From assembly GCF_002854065.1 (NCBI RefSeq), contig NZ_CP024151.1: 64,000 bases of DNA; one strand, 5' to 3'. Position numbers and translations under genes: made by a program. The notes under the pieces were generated by a model. It saw only the letters and a program-made list of their open reading frames with translations, was not told the DNA's origin and did no database searches. Shown one piece after another: positions 42,018 to 63,572 of this stretch. Each line of letters starts with the position of its first letter. Position 1 is the stretch's first letter. Source of the DNA: Escherichia coli. GTDB taxonomy: Bacteria > Pseudomonadota > Gammaproteobacteria > Enterobacterales > Enterobacteriaceae.

Positions 42018-42839
42018 TCATGACTTCCACTTTCTGAACTGTTCGGCAATCACCCATAACGCCTTGTTGATTCTTATATCACCATCAATACCTGTAATGG
42101 CTCTTGTCATGGTATTTTTCCCGGAGGCACTTCGCCCCGATAATCCACCTTTTATCATATTCTCCTGAACCCGCTGCCAGGTCGTCCAGAGATCGTTCTG
42201 TTTATCCTCCCGACGACGGGGAGTAATTATCTGTTCAGGCGTCACTGGCGTTTTATTTTCATCTTCATACCTGACCATCAGTGCAGCTCTGCCAAATAAA
42301 TGTTGCTCGTCACTGTTAAGATGAATTTCTTTCATCGCCTCCATATTATCAGTGACCTTATCAAAGACACCGAGTACTTCATACGCTCCCTCGATAACCT
42401 GCCCGACAATATCACCTTTATGTGGAACGCGGATTTCGCCAAAATTATTTCCGCACACCAGGCCATTTGTGCAGACAAAACGAAAAATTCCGGGGATCAT
42501 CTGATAACTGGATGAACCATCATGTGAATTAAGCAGGATAATTTCAGGAACTTCCTGCCCGTTAATATGCCCTTCCCTGCGAAGACGTAACATATGTTTA
42601 CTGTATTCGCGACGTCCCAAATCACGAACCCGACTCTGACAGGCAAAGAATGGCTGGAAACCTTCATCACGTAACTTATTGATGATATTGATTGTTGGAA
42701 TATACGTATAACGTTCACTCCGGGACTTATGTTTATCACCGGAAAATACCGAAGGCACGAACTGCATTAATTCATCATCCGTTAAAGGACGTTCACGGCG
42801 GATGGAATTATACCGACCAAAACGGGAAGTTAATCGCAT
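42018..42839 (-). CDS. Leading-region protein, DUF932-like (function unknown)
   Basis: 273 aa from MRLTSRFGRYNSIRRERPLTDDEL...; SD AAGGAG before ATG at 42839. Family name from memory. Confidence 0.7.
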   Translation of the reverse strand: MRLTSRFGRYNSIRRERPLTDDELMQFVPSVFSGDKHKSRSERYTYIPTINIINKLRDEGFQPFFACQSRVRDLGRREYSKHMLRLRREGHINGQEVPEIILLNSHDGSSSYQMIPGIFRFVCTNGLVCGNNFGEIRVPHKGDIVGQVIEGAYEVLGVFDKVTDNMEAMKEIHLNSDEQHLFGRAALMVRYEDENKTPVTPEQIITPRRREDKQNDLWTTWQRVQENMIKGGLSGRSASGKNTMTRAITGIDGDIRINKALWVIAEQFRKWKS

Positions 42840-42957
42840 AACAGCTACTCCTTTATGAAAGAATAAATTTAATAAAAAATTTTTCCGCTTAATATAATCC
42901 CCCCCGATCTCCATTAACAAGATTGCAACAATCAGGAGGGGTATTCATCACATCCGG

Positions 42958-43245
42958 TCAGCAGATCGCCCGGATATCGAGGCCGGCACGCTTAATCTGA
43001 CGCAGGAACTGTTTGAAGTGATCGGCTTCCGCAATGTTGATATGGCGGAACTGCTTATCCACACCCTGACTGAGCGCGTAGCTATAACTGAAGGCCATCT
43101 TTTCCGGGTGGCTTTTGCGATATTTTTTCAGCTCAGTCAGGCTGCTGAATTCCAGGACGTCCCACTCTTCCCCGGTGTTTTTTTTCTTCCCGGCAACAAG
43201 AAGCGTGTACGACGCGGTGTTAACGTGGATATTTCGGGTACTCAT
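42958..43245 (-). CDS. Small leading-region protein (DUF905-like), unknown function
   Basis: 95-aa ORF directly downstream (in transcription sense) of Frpo-like repeat copy 1. Confidence 0.6.
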   Translation of the reverse strand: MSTRNIHVNTASYTLLVAGKKKNTGEEWDVLEFSSLTELKKYRKSHPEKMAFSYSYALSQGVDKQFRHINIAEADHFKQFLRQIKRAGLDIRAIC

Positions 43246-43261
43246 CCTGCTTTCTCCTCTC

Positions 43262-43885
43262 TCTGGTTTTCAGCCCCCATCATCTGTTGAGTTTCGGGAG
43301 CCGCGGTTTTGACGTTTTGCGGGGACCTGCCTTTTGTTCCCTCCGGTATTCACCATCACCTTTTTGAGAACCTTCGCCGCAAGGGGCATCACTGCCACGG
43401 CCGGAAACGACTGTCCGGGGGCAGACCGCAAAAGTTTTTGCCTGCTTTTGAGCAAAAAGTTTTGCGGGATGTGCATTTCACCCCTGGACTGGCGGAGACG
43501 GTTGTGGCTGTCTATGCCCCCGGCGACAGGGGCTTAAACAGGTGAATGGCACCGGACACAACAACGGGCAGGGACCCGCCGCAACGACGTGAAGCGCGGT
43601 TTGCGAAACGGCGTTGCCCCTTACATCCCGGCGGCCTTTTGCCGGGATGCCGGGAGCGCAGGCCACGGCGCGACAGAGGCGGCGCGACCGGAACGGTCGC
43701 TGCAAGCCCGGGGTTTTCACGCATCGGACCGTAGCGACAGCCCGAAACCGCGCCAGCGGGTTCGGCGGAGACTGGCAGGTGCGCCAGCAGCTGCCTGTCG
43801 GAGTCGGGTCTGACGACCGGATGCCGCCAGGCAGCCGGGAGCCGAAGGTGCGCCCGGCAGACAGGACAACACTGCAGTAGTCAGA
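43262..43885 (+). repeat. Dispersed leading-region repeat, copy 1 (Frpo/ssi-like candidate single-strand promoter)
   Basis: About 620 bp, roughly 98% identical to 48604..49220 by eye; GC-rich with many inverted repeats; non-coding despite multiple track ORFs on both strands. Confidence 0.6.
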
Positions 43886-44166
43886 ATCAGAGCAGGAAGA
43901 AAAAGAGAATAATCACAGGGAAGGTGATGTGATTTCTGACAGGCCATAACCAGAGAAGGCGGGGGAAAAGAACGGGCGCCGCAGGCGCGCGTTCATCCCC
44001 GTTCCTGAAGGGAAACGACCTTCCTGAAGTCAGGTTGTTCATGCCCGTACAACATCAGCAAGGAGAAAGGGGCTACCGGCGAACCAGCAGCCCCTTTATA
44101 AAGGCGCTTCAGTAGTCAGACCAGCATCAGTCCTGAAAAGGCGGGCCTGCGCCCGCCTCCAGGTTG

Positions 44167-44325
44167 CTACTTACCGGATTCGTAAGCCATGAAAGCCGCC
44201 ACCTCCCTGTGTCCGTCTCTGTAACGAATCTCGCACAGCGATTTTCGTGTCAGATAAGTGAATATCAACAGTGTGAGACACACGATCAACACACACCAGA
44301 CAAGGGAACTTCGTGGTAGTTTCAT
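44167..44325 (-). CDS. hok: Hok-family type I toxin (flmA/hok-like)
   Basis: Reverse translation [52 protein letters not shown], a 52-aa Hok; below the 60-aa track cut-off, found by reading the overlapping mok frame. Confidence 0.9.
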
Positions 44326-44383
44326 GGCCTTCTTCTCCTTGCGCAAAGCGCGGTAAGAGGCTATCCTGATGTGGACTAGACAT
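44171..44383 (-). CDS. mok: Mok (modulator of killing), overlapping reading frame of the hok locus
   Basis: 70-aa track ORF overlapping hok in an alternative frame and starting upstream, as in hok/mok/sok loci. Confidence 0.7.
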
Positions 44384-44400
44384 AGGGATGCCTCGTGGTG
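44325..44400 (+). ncRNA. sok: Predicted Sok-type antisense RNA
   Basis: Inferred from locus architecture (antisense to the mok translation-initiation region); no sequence-level confirmation, coordinates approximate. Confidence 0.35.
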
Positions 44401-44604
44401 GTTAATGAAAATTAACTTACTACGGGGCTATCTTCTTTCTGTCACACAACACGGCAACAAACCACCTTCACGTCATGAGGCAGAAAGCCTCAAGCGCCGG
44501 GCACATCATAGCCCATATACCTGCACGCTGACCACACTCACTTTCCCTGAAAATAATCCGCTCATTCAGACCGTTCACGGGAAATCCGTGTGATTGTTGC
44601 CGCA

Positions 44605-45324
44605 TCACGCCGCCTCCCGGAGTTTGTTCGGCACCATCCATCGCTCCATCTCACGGACGGCATGACCGGCCTCCCTTGCCGCCATACCAGCCTCTGCGAT
44701 GACCTGCCAGAATGGCATATCCTGCCACTGCCAGCGTTCCATTCCGGCCAGTGACGGAAAACGCTCGCCCCACTGCCAGAACAGGGTTTCCAGGTCATGC
44801 TCTGCCACCCGGTCACTCCAGCGTGCATGCCAGCTTCCGACTGTTTCCGGTGAATGAAATGCCAGTTCGATTTCAGCCTGAGCGACCAGCGCCTGGTACG
44901 CACGGGCTTTCTGCTCTGTCTCCCTCGCCTGCTGGCGGCTGTACTTCTGCATGACCAGCGCGGATTTATGGCGACTGCGTTCCCTGACACGAAACCGCAC
45001 CGACGGGAACAAGCGCTCTGCTGCATCACCGGGAAGGGGAAGGAGGCAGACCTCGCCCTGTGTTTCAATCAGCACATCGATGGCATACAGCCACTGAAGA
45101 CGGTTGCCGTGCAGTTCTTCTGCGGTCAGGGACGGCATGAAAAATCGCAGGTCAGACAGCGATATCCTGCGGCTTCCGTTCAGACAGCGGAAAAACGCCC
45201 CCGCATACGGATATTCAGCCAGCGTGTTACCCTGATGGCGGCGTTTTTCGGTCTCCGCCACCGCCCGCCATGCGGCCTGTTGCTCTGTGCTGAGAGGAAC
45301 CAGTGCCTGTGAACGTGCGCTCAT
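44605..45324 (-). CDS. psiA: PsiA (plasmid SOS inhibition protein A)
   Basis: 239 aa; sequence pattern and position directly downstream of psiB, as in F/R100. Confidence 0.88.
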
Positions 45325-58410: not shown

Positions 58411-58844
58411 GTACCGTTTATCACCGTCCGGCTGACCCTTCAGGCGATGACAGTTACGTGCGACCGTTGTTTGCCGATCGTTGCCAGGCCGGTTTTCCTT
58501 CGCCTGCCACTGATTATGCTGAGCAGGAACTGGATCTGAACAGCTATTGCATCAGCAGACCTGCAGCCACCTTCTTTCTGCGCGCCAGCGGTGAATCGAT
58601 GAACCAGGCTGGCGTGCAGAATGGTGATCTGCTGGTAGTGGACAGGGCCGAGAAACCACAACACGGGGACATCGTTATCGCTGAGATCGACGGTGAGTTC
58701 ACCGTCAAACGACTGCTGTTGCGCCCACGCCCGGCACTGGAGCCGGTTTCAGACAGCCCGGAATTTCGCACACTGTATCCGGAAAACATCTGTATTTTTG
58801 GTGTTGTCACTCACGTGATACACAGGACGCGGGAGTTACGCTGA
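58407..58844 (+). CDS. UmuD/ImpA/MucA-family protein (LexA-like S24 peptidase, Pol V accessory subunit)
   Basis: 145 aa; C-terminal peptidase-S24 region with ...RASGESMNQAGVQNGDLLVVDRAEKPQHGDIVIAEIDGEFTVKRL...; overlaps dinI-like stop. Confidence 0.88.
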   Translation: MSTVYHRPADPSGDDSYVRPLFADRCQAGFPSPATDYAEQELDLNSYCISRPAATFFLRASGESMNQAGVQNGDLLVVDRAEKPQHGDIVIAEIDGEFTVKRLLLRPRPALEPVSDSPEFRTLYPENICIFGVVTHVIHRTRELR

Positions 58845-60114
58845 TGTTTGCACTGGCTGATATCAACAGTTTCTACGCCTCATGTGAAAAAGTTTTCCGC
58901 CCGGACCTTCGCAACGAACCGGTCATCGTACTCAGCAATAACGATGGCTGTGTGATCGCGCGCAGCCGGAGGCAAAAGCCCTTGGCATCAGAATGGGGCA
59001 GCCCTGGTTTCAGGTGAGACAGATGCGCCTGGAGAAGAAAATACATGTATTTTCCAGCAATTATGCGCTGTACCACAGCATGAGCCAACGGGTCATGGCT
59101 GTTCTGGAGTCGCTTTCTCCCGCAGTTGAGCCCTACTCAATTGATGAAATGTTCATTGATTTGCGGGGGATAAATCATTGCATCTCTCCGGAGGTTTTTG
59201 GTCATCAGCTCAGGGAACAGGTAAAGAGCTGGACAGGACTCACCATGGGGGTGGGCATTGCGCCTACAAAAACGCTGGCTAAAAGTGCACAGTGGGCAAC
59301 AAAGCAATGGCCACAGTTTTCCGGTGTGGTCGCGCTGGAGGCAGAAAACCGTAATCGGATCTTGAAGCTACTGGGGCTGCAGCCAGTTGGTGAGGTCTGG
59401 GGAGTAGGACGCAGACTGACGGAAAAGCTGAATGCGCTGGGTATTAACACAGCACTGCAGCTGGCGCAGGCTAACACGGCATTCATCCGGAAAAACTTCA
59501 GCGTCATTCTTGAGCGTACGGTACGCGAACTCAACGGCGAGTCCTGCATATCCCTGGAAGAAGCACCACCGGCAAAACAGCAGATTGTCTGTAGTCGCAG
59601 TTTTGGTGAACGAATCACAGACAAAGATGCCATGCACCAGGCTGTTGTTCAGTATGCAGAGCGGGCCGCAGAGAAACTACGTGGGGAGCGTCAGTATTGC
59701 CGGCAGGTGACGACATTTGTACGGACATCCCCCTTTGCAGTAAAAGAACCCTGTTACAGCAATGCCGCTGTGGAAAAGCTTCCATTACCCACACAGGACA
59801 GCCGGGACATTATTGCCGCAGCATGCAGAGCGTTAAACCATGTCTGGCGTGAAGGGTACCGCTATATGAAGGCAGGAGTCATGCTGGCTGATTTCACACC
59901 ATCGGGTATAGCGCAGCCGGGATTATTTGATGAGATCCAGCCCCGTAAAAACAGCGAAAAGTTAATGAAAACACTCGATGAACTGAACCAGTCTGGAAAA
60001 GGGAAAGTGTGGTTTGCGGGGCGAGGAACCGCCCCTGAATGGCAAATGAAACGGGAAATGCTCTCGCCTTCGTATACAACACAATGGACTGAGATCCCCA
60101 TTGCTTCATTCTGA
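58844..60114 (+). pseudogene. UmuC/ImpB/MucB-family Y-family DNA polymerase gene interrupted by a -1 frameshift near 58960
   Basis: N-terminus MFALADINSFYASCEKVFRPDLRNEPVIVLSNNDGCVIAR is in one frame (58844 onward, stops at 59017); the rest (AQPEAKALGIRMGQPWFQ... to ...TQWTEIPIASF) continues in another frame from about 58960 (track ORF 58993..60114). Confidence 0.7.
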
Positions 60115-60118
60115 TATA

Positions 60119-60547
60119 TCAGAATAATTTTTGCATTTTAAGGCGCACATCATTCATTGCCTCCTGCACCGAATCAGTAGCAGAAGGAGGCATTTTTTCA
60201 GCAGATTGCAAAGCACCGAGTTCAGTCAACACAGCTCTGATATCGGCCTGAGAAGGCTTCCATCCTGTCGTCTGACTGAGTAAGGTTACAACCTGATCTG
60301 CTGAAAACTCCTCGCTCAAAATGGCAGTCAGCAATACAGGCAGGCGAGGATCAAGTTGGTGTAACGCCATTCCAGAAATAAATGCATTCCGGAACAGCTC
60401 ACCACGCTCAGAACGCGGAACGGACTCTATCGCTTCCAAAGCTTGAAAGTCTGCAGCTTTTTCCGGATGCAGATAAAGTGTGAATTTTTTCCTTTTCCGT
60501 TCATCGTCCACAATATTACTCCTCTTTGAAAGCCGCGATAGCTTCAA
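60119..60547 (-). CDS. parR: ParR-like centromere-binding protein (StbB; type II partition)
   Basis: 142-aa ORF downstream of the actin-like ATPase; central region NAFISGMALHQLDPRLPVLLTAILSEEFSADQVVTLL aligns with R1 ParR as recalled. Confidence 0.7.
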   Translation of the reverse strand: MKLSRLSKRSNIVDDERKRKKFTLYLHPEKAADFQALEAIESVPRSERGELFRNAFISGMALHQLDPRLPVLLTAILSEEFSADQVVTLLSQTTGWKPSQADIRAVLTELGALQSAEKMPPSATDSVQEAMNDVRLKMQKLF

Positions 60548-61487
60548 CCAGTGCTGTCTGTGGCGACTCCATCATCACTACTTTTTGCCCAAGATGGTGC
60601 CATGCCGTTTTTATCGAATCATAGATCAACGGGGCCCCACCACCGACAACATAAACACGATTCACATGATGAAAATCACCGAGCTCATTGACTACTTGCT
60701 CCCCCAGACTGGCAATAGCCCCCTCAATGGTATTAAGGACCAGATCAGTTTTTGTTTCGTCATTTATAACCTGCCGAACAAAGTCCGGGTCATTACGACG
60801 TTTAATCAATTCATCTGCAACGAGGAAACTGGTATCACTGGATGCCATGCGCAATGCACTCATTGCAGCTTTCGTAACTGAAGACACACCAATGCCAGAA
60901 TTACCATGAATGGCACTTACAGAGTCAAATTGACCAACGATAACACCAACATCAAGCGTAGTGCCGCCAATATCAACTACCAGCGATTTTTCGAACTGAC
61001 CAACTTTATCCATGACCAGACGAGAAAACACAGCTGGCAATGATTCAGGCATCACATCAACGTGTTCAATGGTGAAAACATCGCCTTTATTAAGACGAAT
61101 CGGCCTCATTAAATTCTCAATTTTACGCTGAATGTTGAGTTCATTTTTTTGACACTCTTTCGTGTAGAACTCACTGATAGGCAAAGTCACAGTCAATGAT
61201 ACAGGCTGAGGCGCTAATCCACTATTCAGTAAAGCGTGATGCACAGCTAACAGGTTAACATCCGTATATTGATACTCAATATGAGTCGTAAGAATAGATT
61301 GGTTGCTAACTTCATCATACGTGTATTTTTTACCATCCAGTTCATAGTTAAATGTCTGGCGAATCCCTAACCCGTCAACCTTCCATCCATGACGAAATGA
61401 GTTTTGCGACAACGACTTACAGATTTTCCCATTGTCATTCCATGCCAACTTGATTGTTGTTGAACCATCATCGCAGTATACGTTCAT
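60516..61487 (-). CDS. parM: ParM-like actin-type partition ATPase (StbA)
   Basis: 323 aa; MNVYCDDGSTTIKLAW... N-terminal phosphate-1 motif, ...VDIGGTTLDV... and ...VYVVGGGA... actin-fold motifs. Confidence 0.88.
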   Translation of the reverse strand: MNVYCDDGSTTIKLAWNDNGKICKSLSQNSFRHGWKVDGLGIRQTFNYELDGKKYTYDEVSNQSILTTHIEYQYTDVNLLAVHHALLNSGLAPQPVSLTVTLPISEFYTKECQKNELNIQRKIENLMRPIRLNKGDVFTIEHVDVMPESLPAVFSRLVMDKVGQFEKSLVVDIGGTTLDVGVIVGQFDSVSAIHGNSGIGVSSVTKAAMSALRMASSDTSFLVADELIKRRNDPDFVRQVINDETKTDLVLNTIEGAIASLGEQVVNELGDFHHVNRVYVVGGGAPLIYDSIKTAWHHLGQKVVMMESPQTALVEAIAAFKEE

Positions 61488-61715
61488 CTATAGCCCCTTA
61501 AATACTCAATCTGAGTAAATCACTGTTTCTGGTTGCAAGGTAATACTCAATTTGAGCACTATCATAGTTATGAAATCACAAAACACAAGTAATATTTATT
61601 ACATCATATGACATACTTCATATTTCATACTTCATAAATATGAATGCATGTTGACACATCAGGTTACCGTGTCAAAATATCATCATACTTCACACATCAC
61701 ATTTATGAGGTTGCA
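61488..61715. promoter_or_regulatory. Divergent promoter/centromere region between the parMR-like and parAB-like operons
   Basis: AT-rich intergenic region with short direct repeats (CATACTTCATATTTCATACTTCATAAATATGAA; TGAAATCACA motifs) between divergently transcribed partition operons. Confidence 0.55.
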
Positions 61716-62360
61716 ATGATTACTGTAGTTGGTGGGAACAAAGGTGGTTCAGGGAAAACTACCATTGCATCAAACCTGGCTATTGCTCTCGCAAATAAAG
61801 GAAGGGAAGTCTGCCTGTTAAACGGAGATCTACAACGAACAGCCGCAAAACATCATGCGGAACGAGAAGCTGCAGGACTGTTACCAGCAATAACCCTTGT
61901 TGAGAAATTTGATAACCTGACACAAACACTACAGGCTCTGAATGAAAAGTTCGATGATGTAATAGTGGATGTCGCAGGAAGAAACTCAAAGGAATTCATA
62001 ACGAGTGGAGTTGTCGCACATCAAATAATTGCGCCACTACAGTGTTCTCAACCAGATCTGGATACTCTTACAGAACTAGAACAACAGATAGACGCAATGC
62101 GTAACCTTAACCCGGAACTTAAGGTTTATTGTTTACAAAGTATGGCAACAACCAATCCGGTTTTGAGGGGAAATGAGAGAAAAGAATTCCTTGAATATCT
62201 TGAAGAATTCCCAACAATTCAAGTCCTGGATTCAGTTATTTGTTTCAGAAAAGTCTATCGCGATTGCATGAGCAACGGCACCGGTGTAGTAGAAACGAAC
62301 AATACAGCAGCCAGAGCAGAAATTGAACATTTAATGAATGAGGTATTTGGCCCATGGTGA
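61716..62360 (+). CDS. parA: ParA-family partition ATPase (small type Ib)
   Basis: 214 aa from MITVVGGNKGGSGKTTIASNLA (deviant Walker A); SD GAGG before ATG 61716. Confidence 0.88.
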   Translation: MITVVGGNKGGSGKTTIASNLAIALANKGREVCLLNGDLQRTAAKHHAEREAAGLLPAITLVEKFDNLTQTLQALNEKFDDVIVDVAGRNSKEFITSGVVAHQIIAPLQCSQPDLDTLTELEQQIDAMRNLNPELKVYCLQSMATTNPVLRGNERKEFLEYLEEFPTIQVLDSVICFRKVYRDCMSNGTGVVETNNTAARAEIEHLMNEVFGPW

Positions 62361-62629
62361 AGAAACCCAGCCAGCAAGCATTAAACAGAGCTGCAGTTAC
62401 GGTAGAACAAGCAGAGGCTCTGGCTCAGCGCCTTGCGGATAAACCATACGGCGCGCCGGAAAAACTCGAACCAGAAAAACAATGTCGGACGACAATCTCT
62501 CTTGGTGAAAGCATGCTTGTCACAATAGAAGATCTGGCATTGAGGAATAAACGCAATGGTAAAGATCCAAAAAATGTAAGTGCCATCGTCAGAGTAGCCC
62601 TTGAGCAATACTTAAAAACACTAACGTAA
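62354..62629 (+). CDS. parB: Small partition adaptor / centromere-binding protein (ParG/ParB-like, predicted RHH C-terminus)
   Basis: 91 aa immediately downstream of and overlapping parA; C-terminal ...VSAIVRVALEQYLK RHH-like. Confidence 0.65.
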   Translation: MVKKPSQQALNRAAVTVEQAEALAQRLADKPYGAPEKLEPEKQCRTTISLGESMLVTIEDLALRNKRNGKDPKNVSAIVRVALEQYLKTLT

Positions 62630-62639
62630 TAATCAAGAA

Positions 62640-62700
62640 GTTATTACTTATGAAATCACACTTATGAAATCACACTTGTGAATTCACACTGTTTAAGCAC
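62640..62700. repeat. Direct repeats downstream of the parAB-like operon (candidate second centromere site)
   Basis: CTTATGAAATCACACTTATGAAATCACACTTGTGAATTCACACT: three copies of a roughly 12-bp unit; the same TGAAATCACA motif occurs in the 61488..61715 region. Confidence 0.5.
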
Positions 62701-62780
62701 CCTTGCATACAAGAGATCACATATTGCAGTGGTCTCTTCTTTTATAGAATAAATCACAATTCATAATTATGATTTGTGAC

Positions 62781-63572
62781 TTATGCGTGTCTGTTTTTCA
62801 GCATTGTGACAGCATCGGACTCAGGCATCGAAAACTGCACCCGGTGCCGTGCAGCCACATCCAGCGCAAACACCTTCGTGTACACCTCTGTCGAACTAAT
62901 CGACTTGTGCCCCATCAGGCTCTGCAGCACCTTCAGCGGAATACCAGCATACAGCATATGCATCGCGTAGGAATGGCGGAAAGTATGTGGGGTAACCGGA
63001 ACAGAGAACGTCACGCCGTCGGCCGCAGCGGCCTCTACAGCTTCATTCAGCCAGGTGCGAACTGTGCGGTCGGTGATTCCCCAGATGCGCGCCTTCTCCA
63101 TTCTTCCGGTTCGTTTGTTTCTGCGCTCCAGTGGGATTTTCAGCGTGGCCACCATCATCTGCAGTTGGCTGACGTATTGTGTATCGGACAGGGGAACCAG
63201 GCGATGCACCTGACTGCCAGCAGGGACACGGCCTGCCGTTCTGGTCGCTTTTTCAGTCCGTTGTTTGAGCGTGGCCAGCTGTACGAACGGATATGGCGGC
63301 GCCAGAGAAAAATCTCCCCGCGTCAGCGCCAGCACTTCGTTTATACGTGCGCCCGTGTTCCACAGGGTGGCCAGCAACATTTTGCGGTGCAGATCCGGTA
63401 CATAGTGGAGCAGGGCGCTGATCTCCGGCGCCAACAGATATTTTGGTAATTCGTCCTGCACAAGTGCCATCTGACGTAGTGCCAGCGCAGCCGGGTAATC
63501 AATGGCAACAGGTAATGTTGCCGGAGGCGTTAAAAAAGAACCTGGCAGGGAAAGCAATTGTGGGCCACTCAT
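62781..63572 (-). CDS. resD: Tyrosine site-specific recombinase (ResD-like multimer resolvase)
   Basis: 263 aa; C-terminal catalytic signature ...HTFRHSYAMHMLYAGIPLKVLQSLMGHKSISSTEVYTKV (R..H-x-x-R..Y). Confidence 0.85.
   Translation of the reverse strand: MSGPQLLSLPGSFLTPPATLPVAIDYPAALALRQMALVQDELPKYLLAPEISALLHYVPDLHRKMLLATLWNTGARINEVLALTRGDFSLAPPYPFVQLATLKQRTEKATRTAGRVPAGSQVHRLVPLSDTQYVSQLQMMVATLKIPLERRNKRTGRMEKARIWGITDRTVRTWLNEAVEAAAADGVTFSVPVTPHTFRHSYAMHMLYAGIPLKVLQSLMGHKSISSTEVYTKVFALDVAARHRVQFSMPESDAVTMLKNRHA

Follow-up and report, generated by a model that had tools for sequence, protein, structure and literature searches.

Do two mechanistically different segregation systems, transcribed away from each other out of one short intergenic region, also draw on the same centromere-like sites? 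We addressed this question for positions 60119-62790 of the window, that is, of the whole 64-kb stretch of DNA that was analyzed. This part of the window is almost certainly a pB171-type double partition locus on an F-like (IncFII/FIB/FIC-type) conjugative plasmid. It consists of parR and parM on the minus strand (par1), the region parC1, parA and parB on the plus strand (par2), and the parC2 repeat block 3' of these. Both the ORF map and the annotation show parMR and parAB diverging from a single common intergenic region.

60119..60511, minus strand: parR, par1 adaptor, a ribbon-helix-helix (RHH) centromere-binding protein of 130 aa with a GTG start
60516..61487, minus strand: parM, actin-type segregation ATPase, 323 aa
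61488..61715, no strand: parC1, predicted common control and centromere region, 228 bp, 32% GC (window average, 52%)
61716..62360, plus strand: parA, small type Ib Walker/ParF-like ATPase, 214 aa
62354..62629, plus strand: parB, 91-aa type Ib adaptor with a putative C-terminal RHH
62641..62696, plus strand: parC2 core of 8 heptads, among them three 14-bp units that each pair two inverted hexamers

An earlier note on this DNA had pointed to pB171, and this identification was borne out. ParR is identical in 125 of 130 residues (about 96%) to the chain in PDB entry 2JD3, named as the crystallized pB171 ParR in PMC3074162, and the published layout is the same. Indeed, the literature describes adjacent type I and type II loci with a single regulatory region common to both (PMC6519299), parAB flanked by parC1 and parC2 (PMC4270457), and repeat arrays on both sides of the operon (PMC7602700). 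ParR is the single protein on which orthology to pB171 is based, and the layout was compared via published descriptions. The note had also placed parM, parA, and parB correctly, but its parR started 36 nt too far upstream. The maximal parR ORF does span 60119..60547, with a TTG at 60547; this TTG is most likely an over-extension and the GTG at 60511 the true start, yielding 130 aa. A GAGGAG Shine-Dalgarno sequence lies 7 nt upstream of the GTG, and this start agrees with the 130-aa chain of 2JD3 as well as with the CP101797 annotation (60119-60511). The pB171 "double par" locus is already known and well studied, and the copy described here is real but ordinary, because about a thousand sequenced plasmids have it.

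We found in par1 what is expected of a type II system, namely, an actin-fold ATPase with intact nucleotide-binding motifs, an RHH adaptor gene 3' of parM, and repeated predicted sites upstream of parM. ParM matched Pfam StbA_N (1.6e-64) and the ParM C-terminal domain (4.3e-44) as well as the structures of R1 ParM (E value of 2.8e-76), with both phosphate-binding motifs, DDGST and DIGGTTLD, preserved. ParR matched Pfam Plasmid_stab_B (5.9e-30). In a consensus scan for the parMR promoter, the minus strand of parC1 yielded no sigma-70-like site.

To assign par2 to type Ib, we used size ranges of 192 to 308 aa for the Walker ATPase and 46 to 131 aa for the adaptor. [quoted passage not shown] It matched Pfam MipZ, AAA_31, and CbiA, resembled TP228 ParF (4dzz, 3e-7), and matched NCBIfam ParA_partition at 1e-33, a score under the curated cut-off of that model (116.6 versus 180 bits). 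The parB ATG overlaps the parA stop in ATGGTGA. ParB scored just above the threshold for Pfam RHH_1 (21.8 bits versus a cut-off of 20.5), and its AF2 monomer, with a mean pLDDT of only 66, shows an extended segment followed by helices at residues 52 to 67 and 75 to 90, which is the order expected for an RHH fold. The RTTISL stretch and the helices are kept in six homologues. Searches against PDB sequences, with the single protein or a six-sequence profile, gave no meaningful match for ParB, and Foldseek comparison of the moderate-confidence model with the PDB returned only noise. Database records still name ParA "division plane positioning ATPase MipZ" and ParB "hypothetical protein".

A rival reading is that one operon is a decaying passenger in this copy, leaving a single working system. 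The neighboring umuC is frameshifted, and gene decay therefore occurs in this region; furthermore, according to PMC13245405, plasmids with dual systems often have one dominant system. However, none of the four ORFs is disrupted, the catalytic and DNA-binding motifs are all in place, and each of the four proteins recurs in its exact sequence on 368 to more than 1,000 public contigs. Both operons occur together in about 1,030 to 1,060 PLSDB plasmids, which fits the 971 plasmids with type I-RHH plus type II systems counted in the 2026 survey (PMC13245405). They are also linked across genera at 59 to 86% protein identity, and this linkage and cross-genus conservation indicate purifying selection on both operons. 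We thus consider decay of either operon very unlikely.

We then turned to the DNA between and behind the operons, where the following elements were recognized.

61501..61515, minus strand: ParR-type box R1, AATACTCAATCTGAG, with the palindromic core CTCAnnnTGAG, 14 nt upstream of the parM ATG
61542..61556, minus strand: ParR-type box R2, AATACTCAATTTGAG, 41 bp from R1
61561..61658, plus strand: ParB-type repeat block A, 14 heptads in one phase, reaching into the -35 of the parA promoter
61651..61678, plus strand: putative parAB promoter P2 (TTGACA, 16 nt, TG-CAAAAT), a consensus match of 10/12
61682..61709, plus strand: ParB-type repeat block B, 4 heptads (ATCATAC TTCACAC ATCACAT TTATGAG)
62631..62643, plus strand: exact match to the IHF consensus, AATCAAGAAGTTA, lying between the end of parB and parC2, a candidate site

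The consensus hexamer of block A is WTCAYA or its complement, and block B sits between the -10 and the parA Shine-Dalgarno sequence. As in type Ib loci, short-repeat arrays overlap the parA promoter, where they would serve autoregulation and act as a centromere. We counted 11 WTCAYA hexamers in 61558-61712 (0.32 expected) and 6 in 62641-62700 (0.13 expected), and none of 5,000 composition-preserving shuffles reached either count. Repeat autocorrelation at lags 7 and 14 gave z values of 3 to 6.5. In parC2, the 14-bp units read TTATGAA ATCACAC twice and TTGTGAA TTCACAC once. The number of these units varies, with three here versus two in pUMNK88, a plasmid in which parC1 is 100% identical.

The repeats are also conserved. 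Counterparts of R1 and R2 were found at equivalent positions in relatives and across the ParM clade; block A is kept in Enterobacter, Kosakonia, Photorhabdus, and Hafnia relatives, as is the TTGAC of the P2 -35 in relatives; and block B differs by only 0 to 4 substitutions in 28 nt across all par2 relatives examined. Heptad arrays occupy the same place as parC2 in relatives. Only two exact WATCAANNNNTTR matches were found in the window, one of them at 62631..62643; this match is not conserved in distant relatives, and exact consensus matching found no IHF site in parC1.

These data confirm two further statements of the earlier note, a repeat-bearing, AT-rich divergent region of about 230 bp and related repeats 3' of the second operon. 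Indeed, exact TGAAATCACA occurs three times in the 64-kb window, once in parC1 and twice in parC2, where it lies among the WTCAYA heptads. The note had further proposed centromere-like sites shared by the two systems. This was right insofar as the region is common to both operons, but two unrelated repeat classes lie inside it: palindromic ParR-type boxes adjoin parM only, while the WTCAYA heptads surround the parA promoter, and only heptads recur in parC2. From the repeats themselves, we conclude that parC1 holds two sequence-unrelated classes and that the predicted ParR and ParB sites are separate.

The opposite reading, in which ParR and ParB use identical repeats and the two machines compete for or share centromere sites, draws on the one region that both operons have in common. 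Ringgaard et al. reportedly found in 2007 that ParB also represses the par1 promoter, and there would therefore be some functional overlap. However, WTCAYA hexamers are absent from the R-box half of parC1 (61488-61557), the R-box 14-mer pattern is found nowhere in parC2, and relatives with another ParA/ParB family retain the R boxes while their second repeats differ (TGCAGCAA type). In addition, PMC9426499 gives the ParR target as two 10-bp repeats upstream of parM. Identical sites thus appear very unlikely, even more so than decay of one operon. Least credible of all, to the point of being negligible, is the idea that the repeats are plain AT-rich promoter DNA without a specific role: short AT-rich words do recur easily at 32% GC, but the shuffles, the 7- and 14-bp phasing, the reappearance of parC1 motifs 1 kb away in parC2, and the conservation of the heptads in diverged relatives, or their exchange for other heptad arrays (about 13 AGTAATA units in Hafnia), all speak against it.

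The R-box pattern occurred three times in 64 kb (0.07 expected), the third time inside parM.

61272..61285, minus strand: ParR-type box R3, CTCATATTGAGTAT, at codons 68 to 72 of parM, a candidate site

R3 is separated from the promoter-proximal box by 230 bp, or about 22 helical turns. In a sample of 11 non-redundant parM genes, supplemented by a few loci that were truncated or nearly duplicate, R3 was present in every retrieved member of the ParM clade, and sister clades were without it. Among 152 columns compared in the 11 diverged genes, five were codon-invariant, and four of these five fell in R3 (permutation P of about 2e-5). In the retrieved clade, R3 thus appears to be held fixed by selection at the nucleotide level, and it may represent a third, hitherto unnoticed cis element of par1. 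By looping or wrapping, ParR bound to R3 could draw the start of parM into a partition or repression complex.

Two further elements lie to the right of the parC2 core.

62711..62745, plus strand: terminator-like hairpin and T run after parC2
62749..62784, no strand: 36-bp palindrome with ATCACA/TTCATA-like heptads at the 3' end of the integrase gene, of doubtful par2 membership

A hairpin directly follows the parC2 heptads in relatives as well, and the 62711..62745 stretch is common to ColBM plasmids without par2. The palindrome contains three hexamers (P of 2e-4); plasmids without par2 also have it together with the integrase gene, some of them in a shortened form. We had considered it as a second parC2 block but dropped it as a secure part, given that ColBM plasmids without par2 share this DNA. 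From 62707 onward, the DNA moves together with the integrase gene, and we therefore restrict the secure parC2 to 62641-62696; what lies beyond 62707 is part of the integrase module and not clearly of par2.

The same architecture was found in Enterobacter (74% DNA identity), Photorhabdus, and Hafnia relatives, with R boxes by parM, heptads around the conserved -35, a four-heptad block before parA, and a heptad array and terminator after parB. Beyond these, all retrieved members of the ParM clade have a type Ib ParA as the immediate upstream neighbor of parM. These Walker ATPases fall mostly into two families unrelated to each other, of which one is divergent and the other in tandem. The constancy of the type Ib neighbor suggests that the actin system is co-adapted to work beside a Walker system, i.e., that this ParMR clade is adapted to function next to such a system and not alone. 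That R3 is a third cis element of par1 and that the clade is co-adapted to its Walker neighbor is, as a joint proposal, tentative, and we rate it as possible rather than probable.

How the two machines would work can be outlined by analogy. The window provides gene identities, intact catalytic motifs, and two repeat classes with their statistics and conservation; for protein binding, repression, cross-talk, and segregation we rely on the pB171 literature, largely as cited in later papers. In par1, ParR dimers would bind the palindromic boxes by parM, forming a partition complex and repressing the parMR promoter, and ParM-ATP filaments capped by ParR-DNA would push sister plasmids apart. In par2, ParB, a small putative RHH protein, would bind cooperatively to the 7-bp-phased hexamers of parC1, which lie on either side of the parA promoter and extend into it, and to those of parC2; ParB bound in this way would repress parAB and build partition complexes, and these would stimulate nucleoid-bound ParA-ATP, leading to even positioning of the plasmid over the nucleoid.

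There is nothing new in the locus as such. It is the textbook case of a plasmid that carries two segregation machines of different mechanism, and it ranks among the commonest partition modules on the F-like plasmids of Enterobacteriaceae. In practice, it is useful for the annotation of the ParA and ParB records. The intragenic box, the Walker pairing, and the number of parC2 units would, if confirmed, be of modest interest to plasmid biologists, and these side observations bear on the nucleation of the ParR complex by a two-box centromere and on the lasting linkage of both systems.

We finally compared the locus with known systems. It resembles pB171 in gene order, divergent orientation, the sizes of ParA (214 aa) and ParB (91 aa), a common region of about 200 to 230 bp, and a second cis site downstream of parB with repeats as in parC1; the five substitutions in ParR set it apart, with no functional difference evident. 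With R1 ParMRC it shares the actin-fold ParM, the RHH adaptor gene downstream, and a centromere upstream of parM that overlaps the promoter region. However, R1 parC consists of ten 11-bp iterons, while two upstream palindromic boxes and one intragenic box are found here, in a region shared with a second system. The par2 half is similar to TP228 ParF/ParG/parH and pSM19035 delta/omega in its small adaptor, predicted to combine an RHH with a flexible tail at the N terminus, but sequence identity is low and both the repeat sequence and its arrangement differ. Furthermore, unlike in the locus described here, neither the TP228 nor the pSM19035 system is coupled with one of type II. The pESBL octamer system was considered as the tandem variant seen at locus L010 and set aside, since its GATAACAA repeats differ. 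The tandem ParA/ParB-parM/parR loci (IncK2/Z, IncI-gamma, and Providencia; L009-L011) belong to the same ParM/ParR clade, with R boxes, the intragenic box, and a type Ib pair immediately upstream across a common intergenic region of roughly 237 bp. Their Walker pair, however, is of another family (about 29% identity to the ParA described here), is transcribed in the direction of parMR, and is associated with different repeats.

All four ORFs that the earlier note had read as a divergent double partition locus are present in the window sequence. The double-locus reading is supported, with three amendments, which concern where parR starts, the separateness of the two sets of repeats, and the extent of parC2. 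For parM, parA, and parB, we recorded the following features:

60516-61487, minus strand: parM, 323 aa; Pfam StbA_N (1.6e-64) and ParM C-terminal domain (4.3e-44)
61716-62360, plus strand: parA, 214 aa; deviant Walker A motif KGGSGKT at residues 9-15
62354-62629, plus strand: parB, 91 aa; ATG overlapping the parA stop codon in ATGGTGA

ParM matched crystal structures of R1 ParM (E 2.8e-76) and retains intact DDGST and DIGGTTLD, the phosphate motifs of the actin fold. The parR ORF can be read from TTG 60547, as had been proposed, but a start at GTG 60511 is preferable. This codon is located 4 nt past the parM stop codon and 7 nt past GAGGAG, yields the 130-aa ParR annotated in public records, and corresponds to the first residue of PDB chain 2JD3 (identity to ParR, 125 of 130 residues). 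ParA matched NCBIfam ParA_partition (1e-33), yet remained under the curated cut-off of this model (116.6 versus 180 bits); it also matched TP228 ParF. ParB narrowly passed the Pfam RHH_1 threshold (21.8 versus 20.5 bits), and PDB sequence searches and a PDB fold search returned nothing useful for this protein. In its AlphaFold model (six homologues), the N-terminal part is disordered and is followed by RTTISL as an extended segment and by helices at 52-67 and 75-90, an order of elements that, with moderate confidence, would be as expected for a ribbon-helix-helix monomer. RefSeq names the products of 61716-62629 "division plane positioning ATPase MipZ" (ParA) and "hypothetical protein" (ParB); both names mislead, as the two form a characterised partition pair.

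In the umuC/impB-like gene just upstream (58844-60114), a C-run near 58965 has been shortened by one C compared to pUMNK88. The resulting frameshift splits this Y-family polymerase gene into ORFs of 57 and 373 aa, and it is therefore likely a pseudogene.

The intergenic region (parC1, 61488-61715) spans 228 bp and has a GC content of 32%, versus 52% for the window. It contains the following elements:

61501-61515 and 61542-61556: ParR-type boxes R1 and R2, two copies of AATACTCAATYTGAG adjoining parM, 41 bp apart, each with a palindromic core CTCAnnnTGAG
61561-61658: 14 ParB-type heptads in one phase, reaching into the -35 of the promoter-like site
61651-61678: promoter-like site before parA (TTGACA, 16 nt, TG-CAAAAT)
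61682-61709: four more heptads, occupying the gap from the -10 to the parA ribosome-binding site

The parA-side half is made of 7-bp-phased hexamers, WTCAYA or its complement, while the R-box half harbors zero WTCAYA hexamers. We counted 11 hexamers in parC1 (0.32 expected) and 6 in parC2, the repeat block 3' of parB (0.13 expected), counts matched in 0 of 5,000 shuffles. Autocorrelation at lag-7 and lag-14 gave z values of 3 to 6.5, and the three exact copies of TGAAATCACA in the 64-kb window all fall in the parC1 and parC2 regions. The repeats are thus real and belong to two unrelated classes. Of the shared centromere-like sites suggested earlier, the region is indeed shared, but the sites are separate. 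Within parC1, the direct repeats bound by ParR and those bound by ParB are reportedly unrelated, and ParB is also said to repress the par1 (parMR) promoter.

Downstream of parB, we delineated the right-hand boundary of the locus:

62641-62696: secure part of parC2, three 14-bp units, each of two inverted WTCAYA-class hexamers
62711-62745: terminator-like hairpin with a T run, following the parC2 heptads
62749-62784: 36-bp palindrome ATAAATCACAATTCATAA/TTATGATTTGTGACTTAT with ATCACA/TTCATA-like heptads, at the 3' end of the tyrosine-recombinase gene
62781-63572: tyrosine-recombinase (integrase) gene

ColBM-type plasmids without par2 (parAB) carry the DNA from 62707 on, at 88 to 100% identity, behind the same integrase gene, and several lineages have a junction at about 62707. 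These ColBM plasmids share the hairpin and the palindrome and carry colicin M immunity in place of par2. In diverged relatives, parC2 is a plain heptad array with a hairpin directly after it. Because of the ColBM sharing and this simple layout, we consider 62641-62696 secure and the palindrome doubtful as part of parC2; a role as recombinase site or an origin as parC2 remnant is conceivable. The 14-bp units number three in this plasmid and two in pUMNK88 and in an Escherichia sp. contig (L012), so that the centromere repeat number is polymorphic, and the parC2 of a Hafnia relative (L017) consists of about 13 perfect AGTAATA heptads. parC2 is evolutionarily labile. IHF reportedly contributes to par2 function. 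The 64-kb window contains only two exact IHF consensus matches, one of which (AATCAAGAAGTTA, 62631-62643) is situated between the parB stop codon and the first parC2 heptad; this site was not conserved in the distant relatives examined.

One additional ParR-type box was found within parM:

61272-61285, minus strand: third box (R3), CTCATATTGAGTAT, parM codons 68-72, 230 bp from R1

Within 64 kb, the ParR-box 14-mer is present three times (0.07 expected), always at this locus. Among 11 non-redundant parM genes of the clade (mean pairwise nucleotide identity, 69%), 152 degenerate codons are amino-acid-invariant; just 5 of them are also codon-invariant, and four of these five lie inside the box (permutation P of about 2e-5). 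The box is absent from sister ParM clades, in which these codons vary freely; some of these clades also use CTCAnnnTGAG boxes upstream. The codon invariance points to the DNA or RNA sequence as the target of selection, and the box would most simply be a putative third ParR site, potentially a new point.

In an Enterobacter plasmid, the order umuC-parR-parM-parC1-parA-parB-parC2-recombinase is the same, with 74% identity at the DNA level (protein identities: ParM, 80%; ParR, 59%; ParA, 86%; ParB, 85%). This plasmid and the relatives in Photorhabdus, Hafnia, and Providencia keep the R boxes adjoining parM, the heptads surrounding a conserved TTGAC, a closely conserved block of four heptads preceding parA (0 to 4 substitutions in 28 nt), and the heptad array 3' of parB. 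The heptad layout is the same in a Kosakonia plasmid harboring par2 without par1. These comparisons provide evidence that the repeats are functional cis elements, as judged from sequence.

A type Ib ParA gene lies directly upstream of parM in all retrieved members of this ParM clade, mostly with a recognisable small ParB-like gene. This ParA belongs either to a divergent pB171-type par2 or to another ParA/ParB family arranged in tandem, except at one locus, where the ParA is of a third, distant kind and no ParB homologue was detected. The tandem form, with the same ParM/ParR clade, occurs on IncK2/Z, IncI-gamma, and Providencia plasmids, among others, and places a different ParA and small-protein pair directly upstream, with a shared region of roughly 237 bp containing TGCAGCAA-type repeats and R boxes:

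L009, 3252-3488: tandem shared region
L010 and L011, 3029-3266: tandem shared region

Comparison loci L014, L015, L019, L020, L039, and L041 also have this form. Sister ParM clades had no ParA within 1.5 kb and have two ParR-like ORFs. This consistent coupling of type Ib and type II systems is potentially a new point.

The sequence analysis shows which genes these are, that their motifs are intact, how the repeats are laid out, and how far they are conserved. From the literature, we infer binding, repression, and segregation at this locus, which most likely works as established for pB171. In par1, ParR on the R boxes would form the partition complex and repress parMR, while ParM filaments would push plasmids apart. 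In par2, ParB would bind the heptads cooperatively and thereby switch parAB off, given that heptads overlap the -35 and also sit between the -10 and the start codon. Partition complexes containing ParB would assemble at both parC1 and parC2 and stimulate nucleoid-bound ParA-ATP, leading to even plasmid spacing (PMC4270457).

The window is an F-like conjugative plasmid, collinear with CP101797 in FII repA, finO, the tra operon, and the leading region. The leading region of CP101797 (L008) carries a group II intron (ltrA, 42510-44853) that is absent from the window at 43853. Seven PLSDB plasmids matched the 2.8-kb locus query at 100%; at least 80% query coverage was reached by 1,059 records for the par1 half and 1,034 for the par2 half, and the exact proteins are found on 368 to more than 1,000 contigs. 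A 2026 survey using pB171 proteins as queries found 971 PLSDB plasmids with type I-RHH and type II systems (PMC13245405), and pUTI89 also carries both locus types (PMC9800825). The double par system is already known and widespread. Its assignment to the pB171 type is supported by ParR, since 2JD3 is pB171 ParR, so named in PMC3074162, and by the published layout, in which par2 comprises parC1, parA, parB, and parC2 (PMC4270457); published descriptions of pB171-type double par fit this locus point by point.
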